A stretch of DNA of 64,000 bases from the IMG/VR virus record IMGVR_UViG_3300037502_002629; one strand, 5' to 3'. Under the pieces are notes generated by a model that was given only the letters and a program-made list of their open reading frames with translations, was not told the DNA's origin and did not search any database. Shown here piece by piece: positions 3,001-29,353 of this stretch (within the stretch, counting starts at the first letter, position 1; each line of letters opens with the position of its first letter). A program made the position numbers and the translations under genes. Source of the stretch: an uncultured virus (IMG/VR IMGVR_UViG_3300037502_002629) (Duplodnaviria > Heunggongvirae > Uroviricota > Caudoviricetes).

Positions 3001-3385
3001 AAAGTCTACAGCAGCAAGTACTTCAAAAAAGAAACGTGGTGAGCAACAAGCTAAAGCTGCTGAGCGCAGAAAACGCAAACCAAGTGCTGCTGAACCTAAA
3101 GAAGGAGCTAAACCGAAGAAAGACAGAAAGAAAAACATAGTTGATACTGTTAATCAACTAGAGTTAGACTTTACTGAAAAGGCCACTAAAAAAAGAAAGA
3201 CAAAAGTCAATAAGTCTGCAAGCTCTAAACAGATCTTACCTATTGTAGACTCAAAGAAAATAATCAATAAAATGACTAAGAAAGAAGTCAAAGGGATTAG
3301 TGATGCTATTGATACAGCACAAGAAAAACCTGATGACAGTAATCCCTTTGCATCATTGACTTCTAAAAAAACCTGTGAAATATGA
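2..3385 (+). CDS. Giant putative virion cargo/ejection protein, 5'-truncated by the window
   Basis: The frame is open from position 2 (LGVLGILPK...EGIQENLQE...), so the true start lies upstream of the window. The protein is largely helical/coiled with a Lys-rich C-terminal part. It is the first of three giant adjacent genes, as in crAss-like RNAP blocks. Confidence 0.75.
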   Translation, partial: LGVLGILPKISSDFTKKQALWEFGKSTLRGVTRIEVAEGIQENLQEGTNEGLIDYYYSIYKNDVADWGQSFNEALASQTTKQGAKTFLMGALTGIFSRPGMMAIEKIQESKYLNPSYAAHKESVAESLEFLNKFYDPKNMENTMKEAVKQIKLQSTFSEAMVSSISLNDKLQYYNNHDSAVIKAIMHAKRTGTLDTLTAMLGGYGTNFNEAQFKEAFGYTPKELGKSSVSDVMSSIADSAQKYSDIYDKYSTKFSLLLSAGDLIKDPNAKAKFEVRKAALLDAISTVAFIGSKSQAVLDRAANIVQRLAKHESIGQSLATSFQTLTNNDKLSNSIFLLEQEIRTLESAQTAGTPVDPATKELINSKSEELALLQEIQETMFQALPQINPETGGVEMSYVPDAFSLGRGRLGYLSQIMSRYFTIKNAQNGNSTVVTKTDVDGAIQDIYDYMILGRDHQEYSDAVNMLNDPETFGKYHERIMDARVAAHARLFYDDIQKLAEISEVAKKWVQDNQDILDKLLKFSKMPSGTYANLAELEKIRKLILEKTKEFRTGAAAATAKPAESAGSMTDEERAAIIQKNKQVKPAADLHDNPATRDEANEYMASRYDLEEIEKNFSFTSTDPKLRSVKRYYFNEKGERVPYGTVTVASEWNFGLGNVPVDNMESLLEYLRLIEQGIWENQQAAKAEAQASEALSAEVTQQLDLEKTALANYIDQPVIFNGMLATLRKSGDLYIVEFEDGSKTVLGKDEVDKPLTLNDIVELSLAYSEFTPVEKEAVGHTESTIIDVNQEGVVTIEIDETLDHAWINGIKWTFVKNEDGLVTEFTSVIEKKKGKSVKRVLLRLGPNNPKTIEYAARINRILLLNKEPISDNIDELLDEIEVLNNAETIIDQLIAEETDPAKRSDLIVAEYQVNKILSLDNNPRILELKSKFDSGTQLSEDELLELAVWAEETYDKIKKTFSLYITNPVLNSHLQILQKQYINPISDKLFKKDVPRKPRSKKSTAASTSKKKRGEQQAKAAERRKRKPSAAEPKEGAKPKKDRKKNIVDTVNQLELDFTEKATKKRKTKVNKSASSKQILPIVDSKKIINKMTKKEVKGISDAIDTAQEKPDDSNPFASLTSKKTCEI

Positions 3386-15300: not shown

Positions 15301-17766
15301 GAAACAAAAAGGTCTATTAAAAGAGCATTTGACCGAGGAGTTGAATTTGTAGTGGGAGATATGCCAGGAGTAGATAGTCAGTTCATAGACTACTTACAAG
15401 AAATAGGTGCTAAGTTTACTATTTATCATACTGGTTCTACACCGCGAATTCAAGTAAAACAACCTACTACTCAACCATCTACACAACCCACTGAAGTTAA
15501 ACCAGGAGTAGAAATATCATCTAATTCTAAAGGATTAGGAGGTGCACTTACTAATCCCACAGAACTTGCTAAGTCTAAAGGGAACATTAAAAATTCTTAT
15601 CCTATATATTATCAATGGCTCAATAAAGATGGTGAAGCACAAGATCAAAACTTTAAGGATGTAGAAGAAGCATATCAGACATTAAAAGATTCTTCAGAAA
15701 GTAAAACAAAACCTTCTATAGAAAATAGCAATAATTACAAGTTAATGGTTGATTTGCTAAGAACCAAATTACAACAATATCCCGAACTTTCAGATCTAAT
15801 AACTAAACAAGGTGGTTCAGCCTGGATACTTTCTTCGACACACCAACCTACTAGTAATAACACTGTTTGGGAAACTGGCGGAAAGAATTGGTTTATTAAA
15901 GCTTTAAATGATGCTTATACATCAGTTAAAGCAGCTGCTCCTGCTACTGAAACTGTTACAGAAGATAATGGCTACAAATACTATGGTGCTTATTACACTG
16001 TAGTATTGAAAGATGGTGTAGGCGTAGATGTTAAAGGGTATAAAGGAAAAGCTGCAGCCAAGCAAAAATTATTGGATAACTACAATAGTAATCCTAATGT
16101 AGATCCTCAAAATGGAACATATTTTAGGAATCAACCACCAAATGCTGGCGCTATCATTCCATTAGCACCAGCAGAAACACAACCTAAAAAACCTGGTTCT
16201 TATACTTATACATTTCAAAATGGATTTAAGGTAACAACACCATTTGAACTTAATGATGAACAACGTAATGCATTAGCTGGATTAGAAGCTTTCCATAAAG
16301 GAACTAATAAAGTTGTAACAATATCAGGTGCAGCAGGTACAGGAAAAAGTACTATAATGAGCATATTTGATAAGTATTTGAGAAATGAGTATGAAAACGT
16401 ACTATATACCTCGCCAACTCACCGAGCCAACGCTGTTACTAAAATGATGAACCCTAATGCTAAAGTGTATACTTTGCATACATTATTTGGGTTGTCACCA
16501 GATGTTTCACTAGAAGATGGCAATTTTGATGTTAAAGATCTTCAGTTTGCTGAAGTAAATAAACCTAAGATCGGTAGTGGTGATATACTAGTGATTGATG
16601 AATCATCGATGGTTAATGATGCTTTGTATGAATTCATAAATATTGGTATTCAGCAGTTTAATATAAAGGTAATTTATGTCGGGGATGTTGCTCAGCTAAA
16701 GCCTGTCAAACAAAATACAAAGTCAAAAGTATTTGAGGAGGGTCAACAGACAGTTCATAAGCTTGTAAAAGTTGAACGCACAGGTGATAATGCTGTTCTA
16801 GAGGAGTCAGTTCGTATAAGAAACGGTCTAGATTGGAGTTACAGAACTAAACTTAATGACAAAGGTGAAGGTGTTGTTTATCTAACAACTACAAAAGATA
16901 CTATGAAAGTAGTAGCTAGTAAGTTTAGTATACAAAATAATTTAGATAATAAATTGTTTTTCAGAGTTTTATCAGCAACTAACAAAGGTGTTGACAATGT
17001 CAATCAAGCTGTTAGAGAGGTGTTATATCCTAATGATTTCAGTAAGCAAATACTGGAAGGCGAGATTATTATGGGTTATTCCAACTTTGATCGAGACTAT
17101 CGTACAGGACAATATAAGTTATACAATGGCGGAGATTATCAAGTAACAGCTGTTAAGCCAACCACTAAAAAAGTACCAGACCTTAATCTGACATTTGATG
17201 GATATGAGATTACTATCATTAATCTATTAGATAAAAGCATTCAACCTTATACATTGTTTGTTCTTGACAAAAGCGAAAAAATTGAGAAGGTTCAAGAGTA
17301 TGCTGATTATATCCAAGACCTGCAAATAAGAGCGGGTCAAAATATGAAAATGGGCAATAAAAAAGAAGCAGCTGCACTTTATGATAAAGCAAATAAACTA
17401 AAAGCAGAAATAGCAACCATGGTTGACTATACAAAATGGGATCCAAAGAAGCAAAGATATATCACAATTCTTGCTAAGACGTTTGATTATGGATATGCTC
17501 ATACTATTCATAAAGCACAGGGTGGAACATATGATAATGTTCTTATCTTAGCCGATACAGTTGGTTCATTTCCAGATGAAGTAGCGCAACAGGAACTTAA
17601 GTATGTTGCTGTTAGTAGAGCTAAAAGTGTAGCATACATCAGAACATCAAATCCTGAAGCTACTACGCAGGATAATTTGAACATAGATCAACTACAGATG
17701 CAGAGAGAAGCAGAAGAAATTATCAAACAAAAGTCAAACGAATCTAAATCTTGCAATCAAGGATAA
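3382..17766 (+). CDS. Virion-packaged RNA polymerase polyprotein (crAss-like), with zincin motif, accessory modules and C-terminal SF1B (Dda/RecD-like) helicase
   Basis: TRIPT at ~11056 followed by SGSDFDIDSLY (DFDID at 11176-11190) is the double-psi-barrel RNAP catalytic signature. HEAFH lies at 6391-6405 with a downstream EE. Helicase motifs GAAGTGKS (16327-16350), DESSM, GDVAQLKPV, YAHTIHKAQG and YVAVSRAK are present. Confidence 0.9.
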   Translation: MSCYIPVADLTDSLKAAYKHDFAKYRDLSAVIESVMSLDLEPEAKIHAIWFYAGYVNSAALKESRLQTEEWKRGVYQNIHNYLEPYITGKDTFDYEELSKKIIEFFPDKTIEPEELTLEDQIRNAINELAVIPDESVDIEAAKTLKLITDNRAIIDEVVLDPQNTLVRSYLLQLRNVLAARLVQPITTIVKVDNAIKDNDSYYSQAVDYINMREQPGIGIHNGRPMYVLRRKDGQVYEVYYDDTVQNKYRYYSPGTILHDSVVMLQPGDQVFQFYDKKNDAKVSPKDSRVIRIQPEELVTGLSLGQRTNVDDEDRVSVHQRIADTTPSDKGFYAVIKINANKNMQALHQKRRMRILSNFPNIRRTIETSERPNQVQHLETRSEPILSIARTTDDFTVTVTNHDNTLSFDLEVFSNYALVYPDNSVEMIDVERPDHLEILRNQVEIKKGDGYQKLNDDDIKQFVDAVRRYNEFKAEVLAQMEAVGSDNIDIRGIFYKYYDLTNSLTKVELSDKNINDQPLSEHIDSMNGRLPVKIQKYDDKGNKIGEPEIIKLPIVLRKTRDVWMVENTLPENAKLVDENGKEYNSIDIYSNSVLKDAEGNPLSLTEYVKSTPFHTARQALYVAFEVNPRNPTALKPIFKPLVYQQEATSNEDLINLFVTMVQAFNNASMVEGNTTVADWNNKFWGFNVNKQGIKPDVVLMSVSGQKKKFGIKYVMISDPTKNTPEQVEAFNKYFGAKERILPIYPELVDNINKIVSDLFESANMSLPATASLQEAALMARQLSKIVGDKNPAVSRLRSALNDLTNSIKNSNENLLQTYHSDIANGKVPEVMNETSEKYAIFDGNVLKLYSRGLKQNPLASYYTLKTTDEKKLTLTYRNPLKPVIIPGLVKPRPSIQMGPVAVPVSGEIINDPGTLAEPPAVPGGIIPLSNDPFKLVQALESFITLSPEEFDKEIETIKRLLPTAFKFTTEGFEGLDVDGDALGYLRGLFIHLNNTLRGKGVAFHEAFHGVFRNILSLNDQKYYLKRAERVLGDYKSDDKGKYITVNDKKVYANEFRQQRRYLHLNDEQIKYLIYEEYMADAFADFMDSGKAPQTWLEKLFAYLRMFINFFKKNKEIENLFYDISLGKFRTATVTERPSNVDTVYSIKDYKGLPSIVSNPYNQDQIARNYQVVESAIVQEVADRLVAEMAALKVTHPSLKEADLFDIARVNVLKEYQLSSLIEQAPTRAADITNAYSKHYDTAQWLLGEFHLSQRGFKFLNYTSKSEYDGLVVDRGSYPDILAESQKTHESFKKSVIKDYKNVVVDEVDVDQELLNATENEEKSEEELGENFRETSFISAAPGEGSAEFRKMFKYVTYEYIDPRFGIRRKRTVNSRAIFNTIRKITTNLDKLDVVPRILEEINHLNDIIDDYNINIRTEIGADYVIPKSYSDLLTLRDSLQAVYDTLTKAVGLEEGYPSKNLHVFIQFVNTFSTIDAKLMQVQLATTLETPEDKTKPEVVEQTYKLSDIVIGTDLNNIRQDIKGSIYRFNLSPEKAKEQLDVLSELGSIFDDVAKMQDLFIANGKLNDAELKKYINRIYIAIAKLNLDIPYTVVDTLFAYQVYRKFNEIYFDTYGTTLKADDFFAPSSSYRVILRNNKDYFNQFSNLEYKFWSNTIKSAIDARLAVPAGSGTTEQLEKQLSRLSEGYIKSAGEFILKYDPNLAASVTRNANGDMVVKYVKPTPAYVALMKLQRNADISTGLQEFIEDYFPGFQGYFADNPMFDLSKEENRLFLENLSVSAFGGFSQTIKIDNKTPVKNDPTTFNGIDDKTYALAMFGMFVNRTQRLVPNQKEKLITYKRIVTQYEATSTSIVIDAKYKRYVDAAGNPTKQNDRVAFVDDLLSVVKQEYNLIKKNFQEERTNSAPKIYKDYNDSTGARRGFTFNILRDFFVVGDTSVQENAVDNKSQRIGLRSNLIEEASKNTSWEELLANNPDLLSLLEQQLNLFGREQLQIFRDKLTQLGITEQDYPISDLYLNASRNMVADMFFNNWINGMQVNQLFDGAIAVGIKNFADFFKRQKAGAAAGENIYNPFRSSLGRTKTYRAAVMQEIIFYIDDNDLTKPAKLTPYNGPGEKNKAVKIFDGQSVNTIERRIKIAESQGQVDYDALEILKKMRYMLDSSPEYSKDIIALRNRNIYFNSLKTVAAAGFQYIKQSEHTLLRRDVSVIRTDINKNVAQQRLKNLYENADIYAEFLDLGITTMLEDPKTGEMRPVEDLYKETMSEIHSYFVPMKGREALHVILNSMEMDRIEQLMDPNASKKATVKPVSVDYQSIESGEGYLDLQSALENVPTDLTYIQVETGGITTKVTQGIQQKLLIMAQLNPNDPQYAAIKKDIQGYRDNLSAAVKSEVTRIQRMLDTNNTDVIGKIYTAIADGLREQGADPTILQWFELNPDGTPKYSPANPLITNTIVYYYFSLFNNGIFNKKIAGDKFYHVSPYGYKILETSRGDIITHREYKKNPDLYKNVNARYPSLRREEYDETDPVTGITEKKVRYIAEAIIPAKLKELDQTFVERYLSEFFSTRIPTEDKRSMIVVKVVDYIDEAYGNSIIVPFQLHMLSGSDFDIDSLYAHMKSSYKAPDGTRDGTRVLYGNYAHYKSKYKMTENDAKFIEYLIYMSKDDMVKPFLSEEIRKIDEQSSYKAEQARIFGDTFGGQIKDFFYENAALLEKEETEDNAELIDDFKKLIATFNVLQIFKESNLPTSPASLQSYIRTTGTNPVVNVILNDIVQNKINILSNPKVFDRFLQATNNRADAATEIYEDLVRRRGMTETEIYTKQNLYTPTALIVARSINAESKDSLGIAASFNKGVSMLNTIMATLKKPVGTVYINDGKTKINTDKIVDDAVQLVGGAIGLFADAPKNPYPGPLHLTDTTTPVMLGMFSLGFPHAGAIMFQSIPVIKQVLDRYIQQYGSSYRTTSGFAISKKNFLSGIIADAIEQNTKYLEENGILDYHPTTGEPIINKDSYKLIWNGVDTIKPDTEDQLATGLIPLENFGFSITDKNGASFPGDVENLLILNEFLNYMEYANYVSFSITKLTDTLKALRPDQDVFDRLLNTFKELKENPNDSKYLSGTSIANLWKAYPVLNAAYDALKYMDAMSKKVLIERTSFMKGLSALFANVRGLDADLIKKNLKAFIMLQLQNEMMQADPKGILPQLYLEQLDAEKFLDGTTISDYYYLRGKYPNNAFLQAVNAVTDNNGKRVLELTAKGNNATLFTDFLALLTDDIDVKARAFRIAYHGMIKSGAQRAKGSYYHLIPAALSKPMSDAMFALQDQLVSLDEYMLANHKLVKNEAGFYEMTPLAKQEYADRLNEILSKKFGNRKMDEIITDAVSKIVAYNIINSAEGVKRNTTSLWRVNKQLGNANLESAAIEELVSLIKQVAPGYSDNIITDQGNRKELGLPVAFDNVGLDQVDLFVPTGNTLELKIPGLDRRSKEILKTMGIYSWGDDYAFPLYRYNVYGQMMVLKKIDNKSLGEAFVETLAETAFSGSSNKINLIGRSAVYEVVQKQGTGKISPLAFDNRQGAILNNIVKGLQQTSSVRADAIPNWLNINRLQNKAYYFWPLANTQKGPVITNKTYSAIDNSTVTIGQVDGKYQFYNGKLYMTNKAGASATAQTPEQTALFAQALGAPSLEDLQNNPVFTDFFKGSAYIYLYNLNNGDINSPTAQPPAAPITPQTPVSTTQPSTQSAKRKTYSGKVTSLQPNQIFVFGSNEGSSKGGKPTHGAGSAKLAKDKFGAIQGQSRGIQGQSYAIVTKKFYDVEKSSTPGEIIKEIQGLYDYANKNTNKEFLVSDYSESNLNGYTGQEMADMFVKAGPIPSNIVFNDNFDKLITTQPSTQPTGVKGFQGYKGGFEDKGKGTPQGDGKDKAMRQVADGAIVEFKTDKVDSSSFTTLNYFDGTYSYEKDRYIGEAFTGDSFMGYRNKVIMLARNGKFAGISLNDETKRSIKRAFDRGVEFVVGDMPGVDSQFIDYLQEIGAKFTIYHTGSTPRIQVKQPTTQPSTQPTEVKPGVEISSNSKGLGGALTNPTELAKSKGNIKNSYPIYYQWLNKDGEAQDQNFKDVEEAYQTLKDSSESKTKPSIENSNNYKLMVDLLRTKLQQYPELSDLITKQGGSAWILSSTHQPTSNNTVWETGGKNWFIKALNDAYTSVKAAAPATETVTEDNGYKYYGAYYTVVLKDGVGVDVKGYKGKAAAKQKLLDNYNSNPNVDPQNGTYFRNQPPNAGAIIPLAPAETQPKKPGSYTYTFQNGFKVTTPFELNDEQRNALAGLEAFHKGTNKVVTISGAAGTGKSTIMSIFDKYLRNEYENVLYTSPTHRANAVTKMMNPNAKVYTLHTLFGLSPDVSLEDGNFDVKDLQFAEVNKPKIGSGDILVIDESSMVNDALYEFINIGIQQFNIKVIYVGDVAQLKPVKQNTKSKVFEEGQQTVHKLVKVERTGDNAVLEESVRIRNGLDWSYRTKLNDKGEGVVYLTTTKDTMKVVASKFSIQNNLDNKLFFRVLSATNKGVDNVNQAVREVLYPNDFSKQILEGEIIMGYSNFDRDYRTGQYKLYNGGDYQVTAVKPTTKKVPDLNLTFDGYEITIINLLDKSIQPYTLFVLDKSEKIEKVQEYADYIQDLQIRAGQNMKMGNKKEAAALYDKANKLKAEIATMVDYTKWDPKKQRYITILAKTFDYGYAHTIHKAQGGTYDNVLILADTVGSFPDEVAQQELKYVAVSRAKSVAYIRTSNPEATTQDNLNIDQLQMQREAEEIIKQKSNESKSCNQG
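14524..15486 (+). repeat. Three ~21-bp direct repeats ACTACYCAACCATCTACWCAA (TTQPSTQ) at 14524-14544, 14974-14994 and 15466-15486
   Basis: Read directly from the sequence. Each copy sits at a boundary between distinct globular modules of the RNAP ORF. Confidence 0.9.
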
Positions 17767-17767
17767 A

Positions 17768-20700
17768 ATGGCGTGTAGTATCATAAGAGATCCCAGAGAT
17801 GGGGAAGTTGTTCAGATTCTTGCTCCAAATGGACAACCATCTATGTTATTTAGTAATGCTTATCAAGTTACAGGTAACTCTGAAAAAGCACTTAGAATCT
17901 GGGCTGCGGCTTATACTCCCAGGTTTAAAATGAAATATGGAGACTGGGAAAATGGTGAAACATTTTTAACATTAGATATGAACGGTGAACCCACCGTTGA
18001 TACTGTAATGTACACCAACAGGCAGATCAATGACATTCTCAAAACATATTTTGCAAACTGGACAAACTTTCAACCTGGTAATAGAGGATTTGTAAAAGAA
18101 TCAGAGGCGCGTAGGTTTTTAGCAGCACTGAAAAAGAAGTTTCCTGATATTAAAGCTGAATTACAATATAGCTCAGGTGAGCCTGGCTATGCTAAAGTAG
18201 TTTTTATACCTGATGAAAAACAAATACCTTTCACAACTAATCGTAAAGAAATACGTCAACAGAAAGAAGTGGTTAATCCACTTATGGATAAACTGATGAG
18301 TAAGTTTCCAGGTCTAACTTATGAATGGATAAAGCCTGGTGAATTAAATCAGAGTGATCACTATGAAAAAGTTGATGGTATTCGTGCTTTTGTTCGCAAT
18401 AACAAAATTTATTTAGTAGAAGGTCGCGTACTACCAGAGGATGGTATAGAAGAAGTAATGCACGTTTTTGTTGAAATGCTCAGACAATCTAGACCTACTT
18501 TATTTAAAGGTCTGTTAGATGCAGCATCCAAAGACCCCAAGTATCAAGCGACATTTATTGCTATTTACAATCATTATAGTGATAAGATTCGTAACAAAGA
18601 ACGTGCTGAGATAATTATTCAAAGTGAGTTTCTGGGAAAATCGCTGGCAGCTGCCATGAGAAATGAGTTAGAAACTAATCCAGATGGAAGACCTGCTACT
18701 ACATTTGGTAAGTTAATACAGCGGTTTTTAGATTGGCTGGCTAATCTCTTAGATATTGGTGCTATGTCAGGCAGAGAAACTCTCAATGAAATAGTAGCGT
18801 ATATTAACACCGAAGATGTAGCTATTCCATTACCAGAAGACAACTACACTTATTATAGTGCAGCACCTACATCAGACCCAGATAATCTTTACGATCCTGA
18901 TGACAGAGATGATGCAGAAGAGTATAATAAAAAGAAAAAAAGACCAACACAACGCGAAAAACTTATTGAGCGTGGTAAGTTAGAACTTGAAAAACTCAGG
19001 TTGGTTCGAGAGTTTGTAACTCGTAATGCATTAAGTACTGCTGGCGCTGAGGCAGAGGAAGCAAAAAGACTTAGCATAGTTGATTTGCTGATTGCCAATG
19101 TCCAACAAAAGATACAAGATCTTGAAGATGGTGCAGAGACAATAAGTGTAAGTAAGTATGGTGGTTCTGAAAAAACAGAGATTGCTCGTACTAAAACAGC
19201 TGACATAGGTGCATCATTTGGTGAATTCTATCATATGTTCTTAGAAGAGTTGCAGTTTGAATATATGAAATCCAATAGATCACCAAGTACTGTATTTAGT
19301 GATCCAAGCTGGTTTGATGAGTTTTATGAAAAACACAAAGATCTTATCAAGTTTGACAAGTTTGACAAACAAGTTGTTCGACAAATTGCAGGTCAGCTTG
19401 CTGCTAAATTAGATGCACTTACAAGTGAAGGAAAAATAATTTTACCTGAAATTGAGATTGCAGTAAAGGATCAATCTGGTAAAATAGTTATTGGTCGTCT
19501 TGATATTTTGACTGTTGATAAACGTGGTAAAACTAGTGTAATAGATTTAAAAACAAAGAAAGTAAATTATATCCCTGGTAAGCCTAATTACTATAATGAA
19601 AGGGTATTTACTATGGAACCTAGTTCACGACAGGATACTTTGTTCAAAGATGGTGTTGATCCTGTATTTGCTCAATTTCGTTTACGGAATCCACTTAAAA
19701 AATATCATATACAGCTTGCTATATATGGTGAAATGATAAGTGCGCTGGGTATTAATCCTAATGATATTCAAGATCGTAAAATATGGGCAGTGGCTTATAA
19801 TGTGCAGCAAATACCAAATACAGAAATTTATAATCTAGAAGGTTACGGAATTGGTGAGTTTAATAATGCTGATTGGAAATCGATTGATCCTAATGGAGTT
19901 ATAGACGCAGCTGCACAATCACGTTTTCGACCAGCAGAAGAAAGACAAGATACAGATACCACTGCGGAGGAAATTAAAAAGAATCCATTTGCTCAAGTAG
20001 ACAAAGATTCTTTAACTCAAATGGTAGAGCGTATTCTCAAATTAGCACAAAACACACTCTCAGCCTTAGAAAAAGAAAAAAATGCTATTAAAAACAATGA
20101 AAACATATCTGTAGAGGATGCTAATAAACTAGTTGGCGAGATTAACAAACGAGTCGCAAGTATACTCAGCATAAAAGAAAAAATAGAGCAGGAAGGATTA
20201 GACAATCCTACAGATGAGTCTATTAGATTAAGCAAGGCTGCTATCATTAAGATGGCAATTGATGTGTTTTCTTATGAAATTGAAAACATCAGCAACAAGG
20301 TAGATGAAGTAGATATACCATCGACATATTCTTTGAATAATGTTCAAAACCAGAATATGTTAAAAACACTACAAGAATACAACTCTACTTTGGAGAATAT
20401 TGCAAGTTACATCAGAGACTTCAAGAATACGATTACAAGTATGGAGAACCTTCCTAAAGATACAAAGGAAGCTATCCAGGAGTATTTTGATGAAATGCTG
20501 CGTAAGTCCAGTAATGCTAGTGCAGTATATGTAAATGTTGGTAAGAAAATTGTCAAAACTGTTATTCTTAACACAATAGGCCCTGCTAATCTTAACACAA
20601 CAGGTCCTGCTAAGTTTGAAAAAGTGTTTGGAGAAATGCGCGCCATGCTTGGTCCAAAACTAGCAGCTATTGAAAAAACCATTGCTGATATTGAGTCTAA

Positions 20701-23700
20701 TAGAGCTACTGCTTCATCTGTTACCAGCAACTTTTCAAATGTAATTAAGAATATTTTTAGACAAAGCAAGAAAACTAATCTCGAAGCTTTAAAAGAAGAA
20801 GCAGCTAAGATTAGAAAGATAATGCAGATTAATAAACTTGATGAAAATACGCTTGATGATTACCTTGAAGGTATTTTTGGCAATCAAGATTCAGTGTGGT
20901 ATATGGGATCTACCATATCAGGTAGTAATAGTATGATAGTTAACATGGATCAGCTTATTGGTCAAAATGCTAACTCCGAAGCTGTTATATCTGCTGTTTG
21001 GCAATACCTGCGTAATGTTACAGAGTCAGCTAGGATAGAGGCTGTCAACTGGATGCAAGAAACTGATGTAAATAAAGCCACAGACGAAATCATTAAAGCA
21101 CATGGTGGGGACTTGTATAAAGCAAATGAATCATTTACTGAAGTAGTCGATGTCAATACACAATATGACAAAGACGGTAATGTAACTGAAACCAAACAGT
21201 TTTTACAGGCATTAGATCCTGCAAATATTGAATTTTACAATACTTATAATAGGTATAAAGCCCAGCTAAAACTGCTTAAAAACTTAATCATCACTACATC
21301 GCAAGCCAAGAAAACTGCACCTGAAAGTGAACAAGATACCATACAAGCTGAGATTGATAGACTCCGCGATTTAGAAAATGCTTTGGGTCTAGAGTTTATC
21401 GAGTGGCAGATAGAAGAAACAAATACAGAATTTAAACCTGAAGTATTGCGTTTATTTAGAGCAAGTGGAACAGCCAATACTGAAATATCTGACCTATATA
21501 GACAAATACAAGCTATTGAAAACAGTGCTCATGGGGTCCAAAACTTAACAGAAGAACAACAAGAAGCTATTGATAGTCTAGAAGCTCAGATATCAAAAAT
21601 ACGCGAGCGACTTAAACAAGAAGATCCAGCACTACAGGAAAAGTTGGATAAGATGTTGGAATACTTTGAGTATGATTTGAACTATAGTCTATGGGTTAAG
21701 AAGAAAGCTGAAATTGAAGCAAGAGGAAATCCTTTGGAGCTAGAACGTTGGCATCGCAACAATAGTGTCATGGCTCCTACACAAGAGTGGCAGGAACAGA
21801 TTGAGCGTATTTACGAGCAAATAGCAGCTGTGCGGGAAGAAGATCCAGTGATGCAAGATCTTATTAAAAAACGCAACAGCATTAAAAACCGCAACAAGGT
21901 GAGGGGTAAGTTTAATCTTCTATATATGAGTGAACAAGATGTGGAAGAGTTTGTGAAGTTAGATGAGCAGATACGCGAGCGAGGAATGATGGCAGCTGAA
22001 ACTACTGACATGATTACCAAGCAATATCTCGCTGAGCGATTTAATCTTTTAGCCAGTATGCGCAAAGAAGTACTGAGTGATAGTTATACTAAGAAAAGAG
22101 ATGCACTAAAAAGCGCAGTTGAACTTTCCTATAAGACATACAAGCAATTATCAGAACAGCACGATAAGGAGGCAAGTCCTTCATTAGCATTGCGTCAACG
22201 TATGGTTGAGGCATATAACCAGTATCAACGTGACGAAAACATATTTGCTGAGTTTTTTAATAAATACAATTACACAAAGTATGAAGTAGGAAACGATGTT
22301 ATTGCTTTACGTAAAGATATAAACGAACAACCCAAGCGTTTTGTATATGTGTCTATGCCTGCTGATCCTAATGATATAGAGCAGATTCCTAATAATAAAT
22401 ACAAAATCAAACGTCTGAAACAAGAAGCTTATAATCCAGATTATCAGCAATCTTTTGTACCTCAACGAGAAGGCGCAGGTTTTTATCCTTATCCCAAGGC
22501 TATACGATTTAACAAAGACACTAGTGAGTTTGAAATCAATCCAAGAGCTAGTCAGCGATATGTTAGCAGTAAGTTTAAACAAATGCAGGCTGATCCTGTA
22601 AAACACAAATTTTATACTGAGTGGTTTATCAAAAACTTTGTTCTCAAACAAAAATCAGCCAGTGGCCGCCCTCTTGGATTTTTTGCACCTTACGTACAAC
22701 AACGCGGCTTAGAAAACATAATAAGCAAAGGAGTTGAAGGCGTAGGTAGAGAAATTAAAGAGAAGATGCAGGAACTTCAATATGCTAATAGCAAAATGGA
22801 AGAAGCCACTAACCAGTCTGGAGTTACAGGTAAACAAAAAATATACTTTCCTGAAAACCAGCGTGTCACTGCAGATCTTACTTCTACTGACATGATTGGC
22901 TCTATAGTGAATTGGAATACAGGATATTACTTAAATAAAAACTTAGCTGTATCAGCACTAGAAGTGGAAGGTATACTGGCATATCTGAATGATATCAGAG
23001 CACGTCTATCTGCTGATTCCAGAGATTTAACAGGTACTAGAGACGCTGACCGAGTTGCTGCAGCTCGAAAAATAGACGTCATCATTAAAGAGATCGAGTA
23101 TAGTCATATGAAGTTCAATTATGGACAAATGTATGAGAAAGGCGCATCTCAACATCCATTGCTTAACAGAAAGACATTGCGTGTTATTATGCAGTTGGCA
23201 GCTTTTGGGCGTATGGCTTTTGATATACCAATGCAGTTTGGTAACTTACTCTCTGGTAATGTGCAAGCATTTTTATCTACACAAGAAGCAAGATTTGCTA
23301 CACCACAGGATTACATAGAAGCAAAGAAAGTTTTATACAGTAAGTTTTTTCCAAAGTTACTTGCAGACTATGGTAAACAAAGCGGTTTATCATTAGAAAC
23401 TTTGATTTATTACTACATGAATCCCTCACTTAAAGACCTGAGCAATTTTGCAGATATGAATACTGTAAAAAAAATGCGCAGGTTAGCAAATAAAGTGTGG
23501 GCTTTTCAAGATATCAGTATGGCTCTGCAGGATAAAGGCGAGGTTGAAATAGGCATGACAACTATGCTTATGATAATGATCAACAGAAAATTCGAGCAGT
23601 TTGAAATTAATCCTGATGGTAGTGTTGTAATAGAAAATGGTGTTAAGAAAGTAAAGCGCGATAGCGAAGGTAATGTAGTCTATGTCAATGCTACTGAAGT

Positions 23701-24592
23701 ATTTAAGCAAGTTAATGGAGCTATTCAGTTACGCAATGATGTAAACGTTACTGAACAGGAAATGCAACATTTGAAAGGTACTATTATGACTGAAATCTAT
23801 CGGTTTCAGGGAAACTATGCTAAAGCTACAAAGTCAAGCTTTAGCGGTACAATGATAGGTACTCTTTATAACTTTTATAGAAATTATCTCATACCAGCAG
23901 TATCTAACCGCTTTAGCATGGGCGGCTACGAAGGTGTAGGTAGCGCATATAGTTGGGATGCACCAGAAGCATACACTGGATACTATGTAGCTTTAATGAA
24001 GATGTTCAAGTATTATGGTTTAGGTAAAGCTGGAAAGGCGTTGTTATATGATACGTTCCTACCAGGCTTCGCTAAAAAACAGATTAAGTTTGACTCAGAT
24101 GAGGGGATGGACTATTATCGATATCGTGCAGTTATGGCCTCCAGAGAAGTATTAGTAGGTCTTTTATTTTACATGCTATATCAAGCCCTTCGTAATATGA
24201 TTATGGACGATGATTCTGAAGAACTAACTTTTGTTGAACTATCCTTGGCAAGGTCGTTGGTAAAAGTATCAAATGAGTCACGTTCTATGATTCCTTTGCC
24301 AATCATTGGTAAACCAGGCGATTATATTGATAATTTTGCTCAGCTAACCAGTGCACTTAAAGAAGGTAAAACTCTATGGAATCTCTCAGAAGATGCATTC
24401 TGGTCAATAATGTATACTACAACTGGATCAGAACATGCGTATGAGCGCGCGTTTTACCAGCGTGATACTGATAGATGGCAAGAAGGCGATCCTAGATTAT
24501 ATAAAAGTGTAGCGGATTTGTTGGCGTGGTCTAATATAGTAGATGCAGTACAGCCGCGTGAAGCAGCTGAAAGAGCAGTAAAAATGAAATAA
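17768..24592 (+). CDS. Giant putative cargo protein with degenerate zincin-like motif and PD-(D/E)XK nuclease domain
   Basis: N-terminal LAPNGQPSML...LDMNGEP motif. EEVMH at 18449-18463 sits in a zincin-like context. PEIEI...GRLDIL...IDLKTK...YHIQLAIY (~19440-19730) matches the RecB/PD-(D/E)XK layout. Long coiled-coil middle region. Confidence 0.75.
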   Translation: MACSIIRDPRDGEVVQILAPNGQPSMLFSNAYQVTGNSEKALRIWAAAYTPRFKMKYGDWENGETFLTLDMNGEPTVDTVMYTNRQINDILKTYFANWTNFQPGNRGFVKESEARRFLAALKKKFPDIKAELQYSSGEPGYAKVVFIPDEKQIPFTTNRKEIRQQKEVVNPLMDKLMSKFPGLTYEWIKPGELNQSDHYEKVDGIRAFVRNNKIYLVEGRVLPEDGIEEVMHVFVEMLRQSRPTLFKGLLDAASKDPKYQATFIAIYNHYSDKIRNKERAEIIIQSEFLGKSLAAAMRNELETNPDGRPATTFGKLIQRFLDWLANLLDIGAMSGRETLNEIVAYINTEDVAIPLPEDNYTYYSAAPTSDPDNLYDPDDRDDAEEYNKKKKRPTQREKLIERGKLELEKLRLVREFVTRNALSTAGAEAEEAKRLSIVDLLIANVQQKIQDLEDGAETISVSKYGGSEKTEIARTKTADIGASFGEFYHMFLEELQFEYMKSNRSPSTVFSDPSWFDEFYEKHKDLIKFDKFDKQVVRQIAGQLAAKLDALTSEGKIILPEIEIAVKDQSGKIVIGRLDILTVDKRGKTSVIDLKTKKVNYIPGKPNYYNERVFTMEPSSRQDTLFKDGVDPVFAQFRLRNPLKKYHIQLAIYGEMISALGINPNDIQDRKIWAVAYNVQQIPNTEIYNLEGYGIGEFNNADWKSIDPNGVIDAAAQSRFRPAEERQDTDTTAEEIKKNPFAQVDKDSLTQMVERILKLAQNTLSALEKEKNAIKNNENISVEDANKLVGEINKRVASILSIKEKIEQEGLDNPTDESIRLSKAAIIKMAIDVFSYEIENISNKVDEVDIPSTYSLNNVQNQNMLKTLQEYNSTLENIASYIRDFKNTITSMENLPKDTKEAIQEYFDEMLRKSSNASAVYVNVGKKIVKTVILNTIGPANLNTTGPAKFEKVFGEMRAMLGPKLAAIEKTIADIESNRATASSVTSNFSNVIKNIFRQSKKTNLEALKEEAAKIRKIMQINKLDENTLDDYLEGIFGNQDSVWYMGSTISGSNSMIVNMDQLIGQNANSEAVISAVWQYLRNVTESARIEAVNWMQETDVNKATDEIIKAHGGDLYKANESFTEVVDVNTQYDKDGNVTETKQFLQALDPANIEFYNTYNRYKAQLKLLKNLIITTSQAKKTAPESEQDTIQAEIDRLRDLENALGLEFIEWQIEETNTEFKPEVLRLFRASGTANTEISDLYRQIQAIENSAHGVQNLTEEQQEAIDSLEAQISKIRERLKQEDPALQEKLDKMLEYFEYDLNYSLWVKKKAEIEARGNPLELERWHRNNSVMAPTQEWQEQIERIYEQIAAVREEDPVMQDLIKKRNSIKNRNKVRGKFNLLYMSEQDVEEFVKLDEQIRERGMMAAETTDMITKQYLAERFNLLASMRKEVLSDSYTKKRDALKSAVELSYKTYKQLSEQHDKEASPSLALRQRMVEAYNQYQRDENIFAEFFNKYNYTKYEVGNDVIALRKDINEQPKRFVYVSMPADPNDIEQIPNNKYKIKRLKQEAYNPDYQQSFVPQREGAGFYPYPKAIRFNKDTSEFEINPRASQRYVSSKFKQMQADPVKHKFYTEWFIKNFVLKQKSASGRPLGFFAPYVQQRGLENIISKGVEGVGREIKEKMQELQYANSKMEEATNQSGVTGKQKIYFPENQRVTADLTSTDMIGSIVNWNTGYYLNKNLAVSALEVEGILAYLNDIRARLSADSRDLTGTRDADRVAAARKIDVIIKEIEYSHMKFNYGQMYEKGASQHPLLNRKTLRVIMQLAAFGRMAFDIPMQFGNLLSGNVQAFLSTQEARFATPQDYIEAKKVLYSKFFPKLLADYGKQSGLSLETLIYYYMNPSLKDLSNFADMNTVKKMRRLANKVWAFQDISMALQDKGEVEIGMTTMLMIMINRKFEQFEINPDGSVVIENGVKKVKRDSEGNVVYVNATEVFKQVNGAIQLRNDVNVTEQEMQHLKGTIMTEIYRFQGNYAKATKSSFSGTMIGTLYNFYRNYLIPAVSNRFSMGGYEGVGSAYSWDAPEAYTGYYVALMKMFKYYGLGKAGKALLYDTFLPGFAKKQIKFDSDEGMDYYRYRAVMASREVLVGLLFYMLYQALRNMIMDDDSEELTFVELSLARSLVKVSNESRSMIPLPIIGKPGDYIDNFAQLTSALKEGKTLWNLSEDAFWSIMYTTTGSEHAYERAFYQRDTDRWQEGDPRLYKSVADLLAWSNIVDAVQPREAAERAVKMK

Positions 24593-24751: not shown

Positions 24752-24892
24752 ATGGCTAAACCTAAAATGACTGCTGGGGCGGTATTCCATGCTCGTCCTA
24801 AAGTAAAAAGAGCAGGAGTACACGCTAAAACCAAACATAGCGGTTTAAAATCCAGCAAATTATACAAGAAGAAGTATAGAGGCCAAGGCTAA
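24752..24892 (+). CDS. Small basic protein ending KKYRGQG (46 aa, not in ORF track)
   Basis: MAKPKMTAGAVFHARPKVKRAGVHAKTKHSGLKSSKLYKKKYRGQG. Its stop overlaps the next ATG (TAATG). Confidence 0.75.
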   Translation: MAKPKMTAGAVFHARPKVKRAGVHAKTKHSGLKSSKLYKKKYRGQG

Positions 24893-25787: not shown

Positions 25788-26315
25788 ATGGCAAAACCTG
25801 GACTTTACGCAAACAAAGCTTGTTATAAATGTAAACTAGAAAAACCAATTGAACTTTATTATAAAGGTTCTAATACTAAAGATGGTTTGCATTCTTGGTG
25901 TAAAGATTGTTGCAATATTGGTAATAAAAAATCTATTATAAAAAAGTATTCTACATTTGAAGGTAGAATACCTACTTTTCTTTATACATGTAAAACAAGT
26001 GCTATTAAAAGAAAACAAGAATTTAGTTTAACAGCTGATGATTTAAGAGCCATGTGGAAAGAACAAGATGGTGTATGTTGTTATTCAGGCATACCTATGA
26101 AATTAGAACCAAATACTTTATTTTCAGTTTCTGTTGAACGTATAGATAATAATATAGGGTATCTTGCTGGTAATACTGTTTTAGTATGTAAAGGTATTAA
26201 TAGTATGAAATCTTCAATGACAGGTGAAGAATTTTATCAATTTTGTTCATCTGTCACTAATTGGTTATCAGATAGTAAAGGAAATCTAAATGTAACATTT
26301 CAAAAATATGACTAA
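25788..26315 (+). CDS. Free-standing HNH-family endonuclease (DRID-type) starting with captured MAKPGLYAN
   Basis: The likely start is ATG 25788, right after the upstream stop. It has CxxC zinc motifs, CCYSG and SVERIDNNIGY..GN.VLVC...NSMK. Confidence 0.85.
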   Translation: MAKPGLYANKACYKCKLEKPIELYYKGSNTKDGLHSWCKDCCNIGNKKSIIKKYSTFEGRIPTFLYTCKTSAIKRKQEFSLTADDLRAMWKEQDGVCCYSGIPMKLEPNTLFSVSVERIDNNIGYLAGNTVLVCKGINSMKSSMTGEEFYQFCSSVTNWLSDSKGNLNVTFQKYD

Positions 26316-26463
26316 ACAATCAAAAGGATTGTATGCTGCAATCCACGCTAAACGTAAGCGCATAGCTTCTGGCAGTGGAGAAAAAATGAGGAAACCTGGG
26401 GCTAAGGGTGCACCCTCTAAACAAGACTTTATCAAATCAGCTAAAACAGCTAAGAAGAAATAA
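26308..26463 (+). CDS. Small basic protein GLYAAIHAKRKRIASGSGEKMRKPG (51 aa, not in ORF track)
   Basis: MTKQSKGLYAAIHAKRKRIASGSGEKMRKPGAKGAPSKQDFIKSAKTAKKK. The start overlaps the HNH 3' end. Confidence 0.85.
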   Translation: MTKQSKGLYAAIHAKRKRIASGSGEKMRKPGAKGAPSKQDFIKSAKTAKKK

Positions 26464-26465
26464 CT

Positions 26466-26963
26466 ATGGCAAAGTCACCAGCCTGGCAAACTTGTATTTC
26501 CTGCAATAAAGAAGGAGATAAATCTTTATTTGCTAAAGGTGGAAAAGGAATGTGCAATAGATGTTATAAAATAAACTGGGAAGAAAAAAATCCTGATAAA
26601 GTAAGAGCTCAAAGACTTTGGGGAAATGCTTATAAAAGAGCTAAATCATTAGGTTGGCCTGAACCTGATTTTGATACAGAATGGATATACAATAAAATAA
26701 TAGAAGGTTATTGTGAAGCTACAGGAATAATGTTTGATTTAACAAGTGTTACTAGGCTTTCAAACCATGCTAAAAATCCCTGGGTTCCATCTATAGATAG
26801 AATAGATAGTTCTAAACCATATTTAAAAAATAATGTCCAAATTGTGGTGTATATGTATAATGTTTGTAAAGCTGAATTTAGCCACCAAGATGTAATAACT
26901 TTCTGTAAAGCTGTAAAATTAAAAGAAGATGGCAAAATACAAAAGTCCAAGTTGGCAGCGTAA
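26466..26963 (+). CDS. Free-standing HNH-family endonuclease (DRID-type) starting with captured MAKSPAWQ
   Basis: CxxC pairs, YCEATG and PSIDRIDSSKPYLKNNVQIV...NVCK. Confidence 0.85.
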   Translation: MAKSPAWQTCISCNKEGDKSLFAKGGKGMCNRCYKINWEEKNPDKVRAQRLWGNAYKRAKSLGWPEPDFDTEWIYNKIIEGYCEATGIMFDLTSVTRLSNHAKNPWVPSIDRIDSSKPYLKNNVQIVVYMYNVCKAEFSHQDVITFCKAVKLKEDGKIQKSKLAA

Positions 26964-27216
26964 AGAAGGTAAATCTAAATCAGGTGGACTCAATAAGAAG
27001 GGTGTAGCTTCTTATAGACGAGCTAACCCTGGGTCTAAGCTTCAGACTGCTGTGACCACTAAACCCAGTAAGCTTAAACCTGGTAGTAAAGACGCTAAAC
27101 GTCGCAAGTCATTCTGTTCCAGGATGAAAGGGATGAAAGCTAAACTTACATCAGCTAAGACTGCCAATGATCCCAACAGCAGGATCAATAAGTCACTTAA
27201 AAAATGGAATTGTTAA
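26929..27216 (+). CDS. Small basic phage protein (SPSWQRKEGK...GGLN...RRKSFCSRM...KKWNC)
   Basis: ORF track. Lys/Arg-rich with a recognisable phage motif. The start lies inside the HNH 3' end. Confidence 0.85.
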   Translation: MAKYKSPSWQRKEGKSKSGGLNKKGVASYRRANPGSKLQTAVTTKPSKLKPGSKDAKRRKSFCSRMKGMKAKLTSAKTANDPNSRINKSLKKWNC

Positions 27217-28499: not shown

Positions 28500-28691
28500 A
28501 TGACCAAGAAAAACTGGATTCAAGGTGCTATAAAAAAACCTGGAGCATTCACTAAGAAAGCAAAAGCTGCTGGTAAATCTGTGAGTGCCTATGCTACTTC
28601 TGTATTAAAAGAAGGTAGTAAAGCTAGTACTCGTACGAAGCGTCAAGCCGCGCTTGCAAAAACATTATCTAAAATGCGTAAAAAGAAATAA
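28500..28691 (+). CDS. Small basic protein (KNWIQGAIKKPGA...LAKTLSKM)
   Basis: ORF track. Lys-rich and tightly packed in the operon. Confidence 0.8.
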   Translation: MTKKNWIQGAIKKPGAFTKKAKAAGKSVSAYATSVLKEGSKASTRTKRQAALAKTLSKMRKKK

Positions 28692-28693
28692 TC

Positions 28694-28975
28694 ATGTCAA
28701 TGAATAAAGGAAAAGCAAAAGCCAAACCTGCTCGTAAATCAGGTAAAAGCAAGGGTAAAACCACAGCAGCTACTGCTGGTATCCCTAAACGCGCGGTGAT
28801 GAATCGTCGTAAATACAATGAAGCTATCTCTGGTGATACTATGAGTAACTACGCTATGTACAAACGCGGTGGTACTACTAAGGCTAAGAAGTTTGCAGCA
28901 CTAGCTCCACCATATGATAAAGTAACTTATGCAGATAAAATTGTAGGAGCTAAAAAGCGTGGCAAGAAAAAATAA
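28694..28975 (+). CDS. Small basic protein
   Basis: ORF track. Lys-rich, contains MYKRGG. Confidence 0.75.
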   Translation: MSMNKGKAKAKPARKSGKSKGKTTAATAGIPKRAVMNRRKYNEAISGDTMSNYAMYKRGGTTKAKKFAALAPPYDKVTYADKIVGAKKRGKKK

Positions 28976-29000: not shown

Positions 29001-29165
29001 ATGAAAATGCCAAAAGGAACTGACCGCGGTAATGCAGGTATGACTGGTACAAATCAATACCTCAAAAAAGGCGGTAAAGTTGGTAAAAAGAAAATGATGT
29101 ATGGCGGCAAACCAACAATGAAAAAAGGTGGTGCTAGCATGGGCAAAATGAAAAAAGGAATGTAA
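29001..29165 (+). CDS. Small basic Met/Lys/Gly-rich protein (54 aa, not in ORF track)
   Basis: MKMPKGTDRGNAGMTGTNQYLKKGGKVGKKKMMYGGKPTMKKGGASMGKMKKGM, preceded by an A-rich leader. Confidence 0.75.
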   Translation: MKMPKGTDRGNAGMTGTNQYLKKGGKVGKKKMMYGGKPTMKKGGASMGKMKKGM

Positions 29166-29167
29166 TC

Positions 29168-29353
29168 ATGGGAAAGCTAGGAAGAATGTCAAATCCTAAT
29201 GCAAAGGTATCTGCTCAGAAAGTACCTGGTAGCAAAGGTGTAGGATCCACTAAAAGTCAAAAAATATCTGGTGCTCAAAAGAAACCAAGTGGTAGAGTAG
29301 GAGGAGGTAATGCAAAAGCAACTGTATCTCCTAAAAAAATGAAAGGTTGCTGA
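29168..29353 (+). CDS. Small basic protein
   Basis: ORF track. Lys/Gly/Ser-rich. Confidence 0.7.
   Translation: MGKLGRMSNPNAKVSAQKVPGSKGVGSTKSQKISGAQKKPSGRVGGGNAKATVSPKKMKGC

Follow-up and report, generated by a model that had tools for sequence, protein, structure and literature searches.

The window analysed here, the whole 64,000-nucleotide stretch of the uncultured virus IMG/VR IMGVR_UViG_3300037502_002629, is phage DNA, encoding a DNA polymerase (phrog_1252, 1.4e-140) and a helicase. Within a run of small lysine-rich genes at 24.7-29.4 kb, two genes each have a nuclease-like open reading frame (ORF) in front, and it is these pairs that concern us (Table 1). The first nuclease ORF, HNH1, begins MAKPGLYANKACYKCK and leads into a gene of 51 amino acids (aa) that begins MTKQSKGLYAAIHAKRKR. 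The second, HNH2, begins MAKSPAWQTCISC (DNA ATGGCAAAGTCACCAGCCTGGCAA at 26466-26489) and leads into a DUF6321 gene that begins MAKYKSPSWQRKEGK (DNA ATGGCAAAATACAAAAGTCCAAGTTGGCAG at 26929-26958), whose start overlaps the HNH2 3′ end by 35 nucleotides (nt). An original prediction, made from the sequence alone, had described HNH2 as opening with MAKSPAWQ and then TCISC, and the next gene as opening inside its 3′ end with MAKYKSPSWQ; coordinates and strings are exact. It had further claimed that two separate HNH genes had each taken the N-terminus of the following gene, and this holds as well. The first 8 residues of HNH2 are the first 8 of DUF6321 alleles that have no HNH gene (MAKSPAWQRKEGK), and the first 9 of HNH1 (MAKPGLYAN) are the first 9 of HNH-free alleles of the 51-aa gene (MAKPGLYANIHAKR; L135, L145, L163, L195, L203 and L296). 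We call the captured stretches relics, and the recoded starts of the downstream genes replacement leaders.

Table 1. Parts of the two nuclease-target pairs in the window
Feature	Position	Strand	Remarks
Relic 1 (MAKPGLYAN)	25788..25814	+	Putative displaced original 5′ end of the 51-aa gene; now HNH1 codons 1-9
HNH1, PacI-like HNH nuclease gene, 175 aa	25788..26315	+	PHROG matches; invariant core in common with HNH2
Replacement leader 1 (MTKQSK)	26308..26325	+	Within the HNH1 3′ end; HNH1 stop TAA inside ATGACTAAA
51-aa lysine-rich gene, putative HNH1 target	26308..26463	+	phrog_16028, 3.9e-24
Relic 2 (MAKSPAWQ)	26466..26489	+	Putative displaced original DUF6321 5′ end; now HNH2 codons 1-8
HNH2, PacI-like HNH nuclease gene, 165 aa	26466..26963	+	PacI profile and fold match; phrog_3322
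Replacement leader 2 (MAKYKSPSWQ)	26929..26958	+	Recoded spare DUF6321 start; out of frame over the HNH2 tail
DUF6321 gene, 95 aa, putative HNH2 target, kept intact	26929..27216	+	PF19846

The two replacement leaders restore full-length genes that match their families from end to end. The nuclease genes lie inside the target ORFs, in a structure that needs no splicing (no Rfam intron search was made). They also differ in composition from their surroundings, with a GC content of 0.268 in the HNH1 body and 0.303 in the HNH2 body against 0.40-0.44 in the flanking genes. In HNH2 no ATG, GTG or TTG other than the captured ATG separates the upstream stop from the codon of the first invariant Cys (26493), and the nuclease must therefore be translated from the old start of its target. 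For HNH1 a single further in-frame start, a TTG at 25707 that falls within the upstream gene, precedes the first invariant Cys. HNH2 is seven codons longer than its relatives in L002 and L004. In those two loci the HNH gene draws its stop from TAT AAA (GTA TAA A); the window has TAC AAA, and the next stop falls in the CGT AAA of the target.

The DUF6321 product matches PF19846 over the whole profile (residues 14-93 against 1-72 of 72; E=1.5e-19, 70.8 bits, with the gathering score at 28.5), and the family is very large, with at least 8000 matches at E<=0.001 (8000/8000 scored candidates). Among the matches listed the closest to the window copy is the HNH-free P0002, 93 aa, which begins MAKSPAWQRAEGK and is 95% identical. 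The original prediction turned in part on whether empty alleles with the uninterrupted start exist. They do: P0005, P0007, P0008 and P0087 are HNH-free and begin MAKSPAWQRKEGK, and P0005 is identical over the compared residues to the DUF6321 product of L296, a syntenic relative of the window phage.

A metagenome scan yielded seven such syntenic loci, recognised by the 297-aa gene that lies upstream of HNH1, and both HNH genes are missing from all seven. They share with the window a 46-aa gene (MAKPKM...) and a homologue of the 297-aa protein (52-68% identity), and where they are long enough a 419-aa homologue (MEYNLDQARLWFRD) follows DUF6321. The HNH-free 49-aa and/or DUF6321 genes of these loci adjoin their upstream neighbours directly, with starts of the forms MAKPGLYAN or MAKKGLYAA and MAKSPAWQ, MAKTPAWQ, MAKIAAWT or MAKTAAWT. 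In L291 the 49-aa gene (MAKKGLYAAIHAKRKRIASGSGEKMRKPGAKGAPSKQDFIKSAKTAKKK) begins 3 nt past the 297-aa homologue; in L296 the 49-aa gene begins MAKPGLYANIHAKRKR and the DUF6321 gene MAKSPAWQRKEGKDPKGG; the DUF6321 starts of L292, L294 and L297 are MAKTPAWQ, MAKIAAWT and MAKTAAWT, respectively. Elsewhere the 51-aa gene runs directly into DUF6321 through a TAATG overlap (L082, L124 and L145). A search of IMG/VR for further syntenic relatives by way of the 419-aa gene was abandoned, as the gene occupies other contexts there. In L201 the place that HNH2 occupies in the window, after the 51-aa gene and before DUF6321, is taken by a different ORF of 40 aa (2640-2780, MAVKKIKKEKSECGEK...), and the 51-aa gene of that locus has the same C-terminus as that of the window.

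At the DNA level, the window and the HNH-free L291 are identical ahead of HNH1 through ...ACAATTACATACGTATAGATATGGCAAA, the flank plus ATGGCAAA being the same in both. Relic 1 (GGACTTTACGCAAAC) resembles L296, from which it differs at 1 of 27 positions. After HNH1 the 51-aa gene matches L291 again from GGATTGTATGCTGCAATCCA on, leader 1 standing in place of the ATGGCAAAGAAA of L291, and residues 7-51 of the window protein equal the HNH-free 49-aa gene of that locus. Relic 2 differs from L296 at 3 of 24 positions, and the downstream copy rejoins L296 at TGGCAGCGTAAAGAAGGTAAA.

On the evidence given here and below we think it probable, and hold with some confidence, that HNH1 and HNH2 are two free-standing homing-endonuclease cassettes of the PacI-like HNH type, each seated in the 5′ end of one of two neighbouring genes, both small and conserved in phages. 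Such a cassette would consist of a nuclease body and a spare, re-spelled version of the target's 5′ end, with a fresh start codon and some 6-10 codons, that overlaps the nuclease 3′ end out of frame. We infer that the nuclease would cut an unoccupied allele near codons 4-10, and that repair from an occupied genome would copy both nuclease and spare start into the break. The gene body of the recipient would pair with that of the donor, and its upstream DNA and first codons with the donor flank and relic. The recipient's own first 8-9 codons would be pushed upstream and stay there as a new relic, fused in frame to the nuclease, to which it would supply a start codon and translation signals, and probably also provide homology on the upstream side. 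With the spare start the target gene would stay whole, while the base changes at the junction probably render the occupied allele uncuttable.

The arrangement recurs well beyond the window. IMG/VR holds 44 loci with HNH2 relatives of 51-78% identity, and in all 43 that have DNA downstream (L003 is truncated) the HNH 3′ end is where a DUF6321 gene starts; eight of eight further HNH2-family loci adjoin a DUF6321 gene too, bringing the count to 51/51. The HNH stop lies 1-16 nt before the Ala or Ser codon that precedes Trp (AWQ/SWQ) in the relatives and 11 nt after it in the window, and it mostly falls inside the new target start (xTG GCT AAA or TAT AAA). In an independent sample, at least five residues of the DUF6321 start are found at the N-terminus of 68 of the 120 HNH2-family proteins listed, which represent 170 matches in a collection of 5.8 billion proteins. 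The leader of the window type, MAKYKSPSWQ, also follows the related HNH genes of L002 and L004. As a general rule the leader with two extra codons was rejected, being absent from L302 (MAKTPSWQ) and from L303-L306, with their short TTG-A-S-A-W leaders.

So constant an association, with upstream neighbours that vary widely from locus to locus, might suggest that HNH and DUF6321 travel together as a two-gene module and that their N-terminal likeness arose by recombination between DUF6321 paralogues. We consider this unlikely. L292 and L294 have DUF6321 in the corresponding syntenic place, directly ahead of the 419-aa homologue, with no HNH gene. DUF6321 is far commoner alone, for besides the size of the family none of 160 loci obtained with DUF6321 queries carries the HNH gene. 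In its body the window DUF6321 most resembles HNH-free alleles, reaching 95% identity with P0002, but shows only 44-75% with copies beside other HNH2 relatives. The same design, moreover, stands next door at an unrelated target, as HNH1 and the 51-aa gene. When the MAKYK allele P0009 was used as the query, the matches were mostly alleles that align from residue 5 on, and none had an HNH gene.

Nuclease and target also disagree in their degree of relatedness between loci: the window and L001 share 77% identity in the HNH protein and 51% in DUF6321, the window and L006 68% and 48%, and the window and L019 62% and 68%. This discord and the mosaic make-up of the 51-aa locus are suggestive, but only suggestive, of over-transmission accompanied by co-conversion of the flanks. 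One further HNH gene in the neighbourhood of DUF6321, at L094:2003-2476 (same contig as L219), was excluded as belonging to a different, Endo VII-type nuclease family (CAICN...DHNH...LLCKKCN); it is found a few genes ahead of a long, fused DUF6321 protein and is not adjacent to the target start.

The original prediction had gone on to propose a general mobility strategy aimed at conserved small basic genes. Its general part stands to the extent that the design recurs through the HNH2 family at several junctions; its restriction to small basic genes does not, for the design is not tied to them. HNH1-like genes, which were reached only by way of the 51-aa gene, were found in 3 of 80 loci obtained with it (L166, L188 and L197), each time upstream of the 51-aa gene and with no relic, and no close HNH1 relative was confirmed in IMG/VR.

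The relic itself varies a good deal. Within the junction class of the window it has drifted through KSPAWQ, KTPTLQ, TAALQ, KTAAWL and EELRR, at residues that are near-invariant in real DUF6321 genes. The HNH gene opens with MAKSPAWQ before TCISC in the window and in L001; before KC we find MAKTPTLQ (L002), MATAALQ (L004), MAKTAAWL (L005) and MAEELRR (L006), and at other junctions MAKTPA before RSYKLPxW (L029, L033 and L036), MAKTPAF before C (L014) and MAKTPAWQRF...RSYK (L044). Across the family the relic measures 2-9 codons, and in L037 it has become a separate dead stub (MAKTPAWQK-stop) that precedes an HNH gene with an ATG of its own. On a tree of the nuclease core, relic state needs 30 changes (shuffled labels: mean 39, minimum 30), and the HNH lead evidently turns over fast. 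We also took note of the possibility that an older relic of the KYKSPSW kind is nested in the RSYK[LI]PxW of many HNH2 relatives, and rejected it, as HNH1-like proteins also have R-F-Y-K before their first CxxC. The nearest HNH2 relatives (75-80% identity; P0124, P0125, P0128, P0130 and P0132) begin not with MAKSPAWQ-TC but with MSGKKHIKSSVIRTC; their genes may have entered the start of some other target. No contexts for these MSGKKHIKSS-starting proteins were found in IMG/VR.

This variation bears on whether the relic might instead be a captured tag with a function, such as a signal for capsid packaging, degradation or regulation, that lends the nuclease a property of its small basic, possibly virion-associated target and is favoured for its own sequence. 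In most family members relic and nuclease share a frame and are translated together, and DUF6321 homologues are labelled 'structural protein' in three cyanophage records (H57-H59), both of which a tag would explain. A selected peptide would hardly drift so freely where the genuine gene is near-invariant, shrink to as few as two codons or be cut off from the nuclease as the L037 stub is; fewer than five residues match in 52 of the 120 listed relatives, and in many DUF6321 proteins the motif is internal rather than N-terminal. We give a functional tag very little credence and read the captured peptide as a decaying relic that provides a start codon.

As to the nucleases themselves, no Pfam family covers HNH1 or HNH2 and no intein domain was found in them by Pfam; a thioredoxin-like Pfam match to HNH1 (E=0.018) was under the cut-off and disregarded. 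Among PHROG endonuclease families HNH1 matches phrog_1035 (1.6e-27) and phrog_3118 (1.4e-20), and HNH2 matches phrog_3322 (6.5e-22). The original prediction had the two proteins sharing a DRID-type core and otherwise dissimilar. They are indeed only 25% identical with a set of shared invariants, but the exact tetrapeptide is not common to both, as HNH1 reads ERID. The common core is four cysteines plus S-x-[DE]-R-[IV]-D...Y...N...N..K, and in a 24-member alignment C10, C13, C30, C33, R47, R58, C83, S109, R112, D114, Y119, N123, V127, N132 and K135 are invariant, in both HNH proteins as well. A profile of the 24 members finds PacI (3ldy_A) in PDB at E=1.6e-7, with profile positions 11-148 over PacI 3-128, and the profile alignment sets the family S-x-D-R-I-D...Y...N...N..K on the DRSD...Y...N...N..K of PacI. 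R112, D114, Y119, N123, N132 and K135 thereby fall on the active-site residues of PacI, and the invariant C10, C13, C30, C33 and C83 would answer to Cys-rich zinc sites. An AlphaFold (AF2) model of HNH2 (pLDDT 85.4, pTM 0.74) has the same PacI entry, 3ldy_A, as its best Foldseek match in PDB (E=4.1e-5, probability 1.0, with a modest TM score of 0.48/0.54), the second match being the Gme HNH nicking endonuclease 4h9d. Because profile and fold both lead to PacI, we assign HNH1 and HNH2 to the PacI-like ββα-metal nucleases, with Arg replacing the classical HNH His.

The bacterial restriction enzyme PacI, 142 aa long, cuts TTAATTAA. Like the phage family, PacI (3LDY/3M7K) is a small Cys-rich ββα-metal nuclease with DR-D...Y...N...N..K instead of the classical H-N-H; the phage proteins differ in being only about 20% identical to it, in an extra helical segment (model residues 31-80) and in being encoded by putatively mobile genes within phage genes. 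The DHHRN catalytic residues of Endo VII were looked for in the 24-sequence alignment, which has no invariant His, so that HNH1 and HNH2 are not Endo VII/DHHRN enzymes of the F-CphI kind; the label 'endonuclease VII' on phrog_1035 was set aside as a cluster name only.

The replaced histidine (R112) might be thought a sign that the elements, formerly mobile, have decayed or been domesticated into fixed genes, for instance with a role against competitors or in DNA processing, and that only a scar is left. The nearest cultured relatives are variously annotated as endonuclease, restriction endonuclease and sigma decoy, which would suit such an end, and the mobility of HNH1 and HNH2 is deduced from sequence. 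PacI, however, shares the DR-D...Y motif with them and is active, both ORFs are intact with every family-invariant residue in place, and the distribution is sporadic even among syntenic relatives. Low GC content and the substitutions near the junctions (see below) also fit an ongoing conflict, and domestication or decay appears to us about as improbable as a functional tag.

A coincidence born of the common MAK start (ATGGCNAAR) deserves practically no weight: such starts are frequent here (MAKPKM at 24752, MAKTEIN in L005, MAKTVKK in L292) and of 2643 distinct N-termini 75 agree with the DUF6321 pattern for exactly three residues, but at least five are matched by 0 of 2624 ORFs outside DUF6321 and the HNH2 family, the matches are 8 (HNH2) and 9 (HNH1) residues long, and the relic DNA agrees with HNH-free alleles at 21/24 and 26/27 positions. 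These N-termini came from ATG-started ORFs of at least 60 aa in the window and 284 loci, and were compared with the pattern M-A-[KR]-[ST]-[PA]-[AS]-W-[QT]-R. The 19 prefix matches of at least five residues comprise 9 DUF6321 genes, 10 HNH2-family ORFs and no others, so the match is better than chance, a point that the original prediction had left to be settled. With the start pattern of the 51-aa family HNH1 is the sole 9-residue match, another small-gene family (MAKKGLRSWV) reaching 6. This third family was seen at L080:925, L072:2632, L120:1772, L216:2196 and L248:2196.

Returning to the putative homing cassettes, the replacement starts carry changes where a cut would be expected. In leader 2 the Ala ahead of Trp has become Ser (GCC to AGT). 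Beside junctions the [ST][PA]A-W motif is broken in 21 of 30 distinct HNH-linked DUF6321 sequences, the variants being TEA, SPS, TPS, TSA, TQA and ASA, as against 7 of 123 free ones (Fisher p=3e-13, a statistic that ignores kinship). Copies of the 51-aa gene linked to HNH1-type genes have Ala instead of Asn at the junction (YAA) in 3 of 4 cases, compared with 10 of 65 (p=0.019). These junction-proximal substitutions are likely to be self-immunity changes at the target site. A free DUF6321 allele at L212:2495-2600 (MAKSEAWQRKEGK) has no HNH gene upstream, yet shows the Pro-to-Glu change of the linked type; it could be naturally resistant, or it could have lost its HNH gene.

Several points weigh against the cassette interpretation. 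Cleavage, expression and homing are, for HNH1 and HNH2, read from sequence, as are the immunity of the recoded copy and the use of so short a relic as homology. No near-isogenic pair of occupied and unoccupied loci was found, the closest syntenic relative having 68% protein identity in the flanking gene, and because of this the insertion boundaries and co-conversion tracts had to be inferred across diverged sequences. The first case has a mosaic history, its relic resembling the L296 allele and its gene body L291. At 18-27 nt the relic is short for a homology arm, the leader with two extra codons is not universal (L302 has MAKTPSWQ), and 9 of the 30 linked copies keep the canonical motif, in a contrast of linked and unlinked copies that ignores phylogeny. 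The 30 relic-state changes on the nuclease tree equal the minimum reached with shuffled labels (mean 39). Only 12 of 117 inner branches are starred, and the tree is so poorly resolved that independent captures are not countable.

A bolder version, which we put forward tentatively and rather doubt, is that relic and recoded leader make a self-contained 'home-and-rescue' drive, free to jump between unrelated aquatic phages. Homology patch, only start codon and immunity would then be confined to some 30 nt of the target gene itself, and the element could spread wherever the conserved gene of some 90 codons occurs, regardless of neighbours. Each round of homing would re-make the relic from the new recipient, which would account for leads like MAKPKTPV-RSYK (P0229), with its resemblance to the relic of an allele that already bore a replacement leader.

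The closest parallels are known from yeasts, fungal mitochondria and phages. For the WHO elements of the yeasts Torulaspora and Lachancea (Coughlan et al. 2020, eLife, PMC7282813) the same homing model was proposed and partly tested. As with WHO, an endonuclease gene here appears to home into a conserved protein-coding gene with no intron or protein splicing; the mobile unit would be a nuclease gene plus a diverged copy of the gene end that confers resistance; the old end of the recipient would be displaced and left as a fragment by the nuclease gene, a proposed patch of homology; and the target gene would evolve as a chimera (PMC7282813). The differences are that WHO replaces the 3′ end of FBA1 and the phage cassettes a 5′ end, that the WHO nuclease is intein-like with a zinc finger and the present ones are PacI-like HNH, and that the WHO fragment need not stay open, whereas here it is fused in frame and gives the nuclease its start codon (PMC7282813). 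WHO acts in eukaryotic meiosis; the phage cassettes would act in co-infection, with a relic of only 18-27 nt (PMC7282813).

Gene hybrids made by mobile endonuclease ORFs (mORFs) of fungal mitochondria (Allomyces macrogynus atp6; Glomus atp6, atp9, cox2 and nad3; Beaudet et al. 2013, PMC3630166) are similar in that a free endonuclease ORF within a gene brings in a foreign terminus, with the native terminus duplicated on its other side, and some of them are likewise in phase with the host gene. They duplicate the C-terminus and not, as here, the N-terminus, encode LAGLIDADG or GIY-YIG nucleases and reside in mitochondrial genomes; the host gene reads into the mORF, whereas here the nuclease reads out of the start of the host gene (PMC3630166).

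Among phages, the MobA/gene 60 element of T4-type phages and MobE in nrdA of Aeh1 also place an HNH homing endonuclease inside an ORF (10.1101/2022.08.31.505936; PMC2988022). The MobA element, like ours, brings the downstream part an N-terminal extension that overlaps out of frame, together with HomR, which is homologous to the target stretch with the nick site but diverged from it (67-81% DNA identity), and its insertions are repeated and its losses progressive (10.1101/2022.08.31.505936). MobA splits a large enzyme into two working polypeptides, deleting 55-75 nt of the parent, has a start of its own where the nucleases here are fused to that of the target, and requires for immunity a 50-nt bypass that is absent here (10.1101/2022.08.31.505936). 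In the window, unlike MobA, the split falls at codon 8-9, nothing is deleted and the N-terminal fragment has no function of its own. Classical free-standing homing endonuclease genes such as T4 seg/mob and F-CphI share with the cassettes a sporadic distribution, a place at or in conserved genes and an overlap with neighbours (PMC2988022, PMC6083498). They lie between genes, with their own start and no duplicated target end, a plain form which the HNH1-like genes of L166, L188 and L197 also have, and F-CphI uses the Endo VII DHHRN motif that the present family lacks (PMC6083498).

Since the nuclease is PacI-like and no kin of WHO/HO, LAGLIDADG/GIY-YIG enzymes or MobA, the phage cassettes would work like the end-replacing cassettes and are not members of any of these families. 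In the portions of the open-access literature available to us no description of a phage 5′-end version or of the capture of a target's start codon was found; the available part of PMC10448857 mentions no start-capture design, and no open-access paper on 'DUF6321' was found. What is new is the 5′-end version, the in-frame takeover of the target start codon, the PacI-like nuclease and the targets.

To our knowledge, homing endonucleases have been thought to enter coding regions safely only via introns, inteins or the splitting of an enzyme into two working halves. A nuclease that enters the first codons of a gene, seizes its start signals and repays it with a re-spelled start would amount to a natural 'cleave-and-rescue' design, a 5′-end mirror image of the yeast WHO elements and the fungal mitochondrial gene hybrids. 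Were it widespread among phages, the design would lie behind some odd N-terminal duplications and mis-annotated fusion starts in their genomes, and behind the mosaic evolution of short conserved genes that cyanophages and pelagiphages have in common. Endonuclease target sites would then be predictable directly from the sequence of the junction, and the design would offer compact PacI-like nucleases with predictable targets.

As to the surroundings, no tRNA genes were found in the window. Three giant ORFs stand directly upstream of the small basic genes, at 2-3385 (more than 1127 aa), 3382-17766 (4794 aa) and 17768-24592 (2274 aa), two of which were searched against PHROG with no match at 1e-5. 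At least seven of the small lysine-rich genes, of 46-95 aa, were counted (24752-24892, 26308-26463, 26929-27216, 28500-28691, 28694-28975, 29001-29165 and 29168-29353). The search of phage DNA gave nothing beyond short matches of 72-78% to small genes; those to the 51-aa gene and DUF6321 come from cyanophages, pelagiphages and marine virus records. Other phages have the 51-aa gene and DUF6321 joined together or fused with longer proteins (phrog_11180, phrog_727 and phrog_3477).

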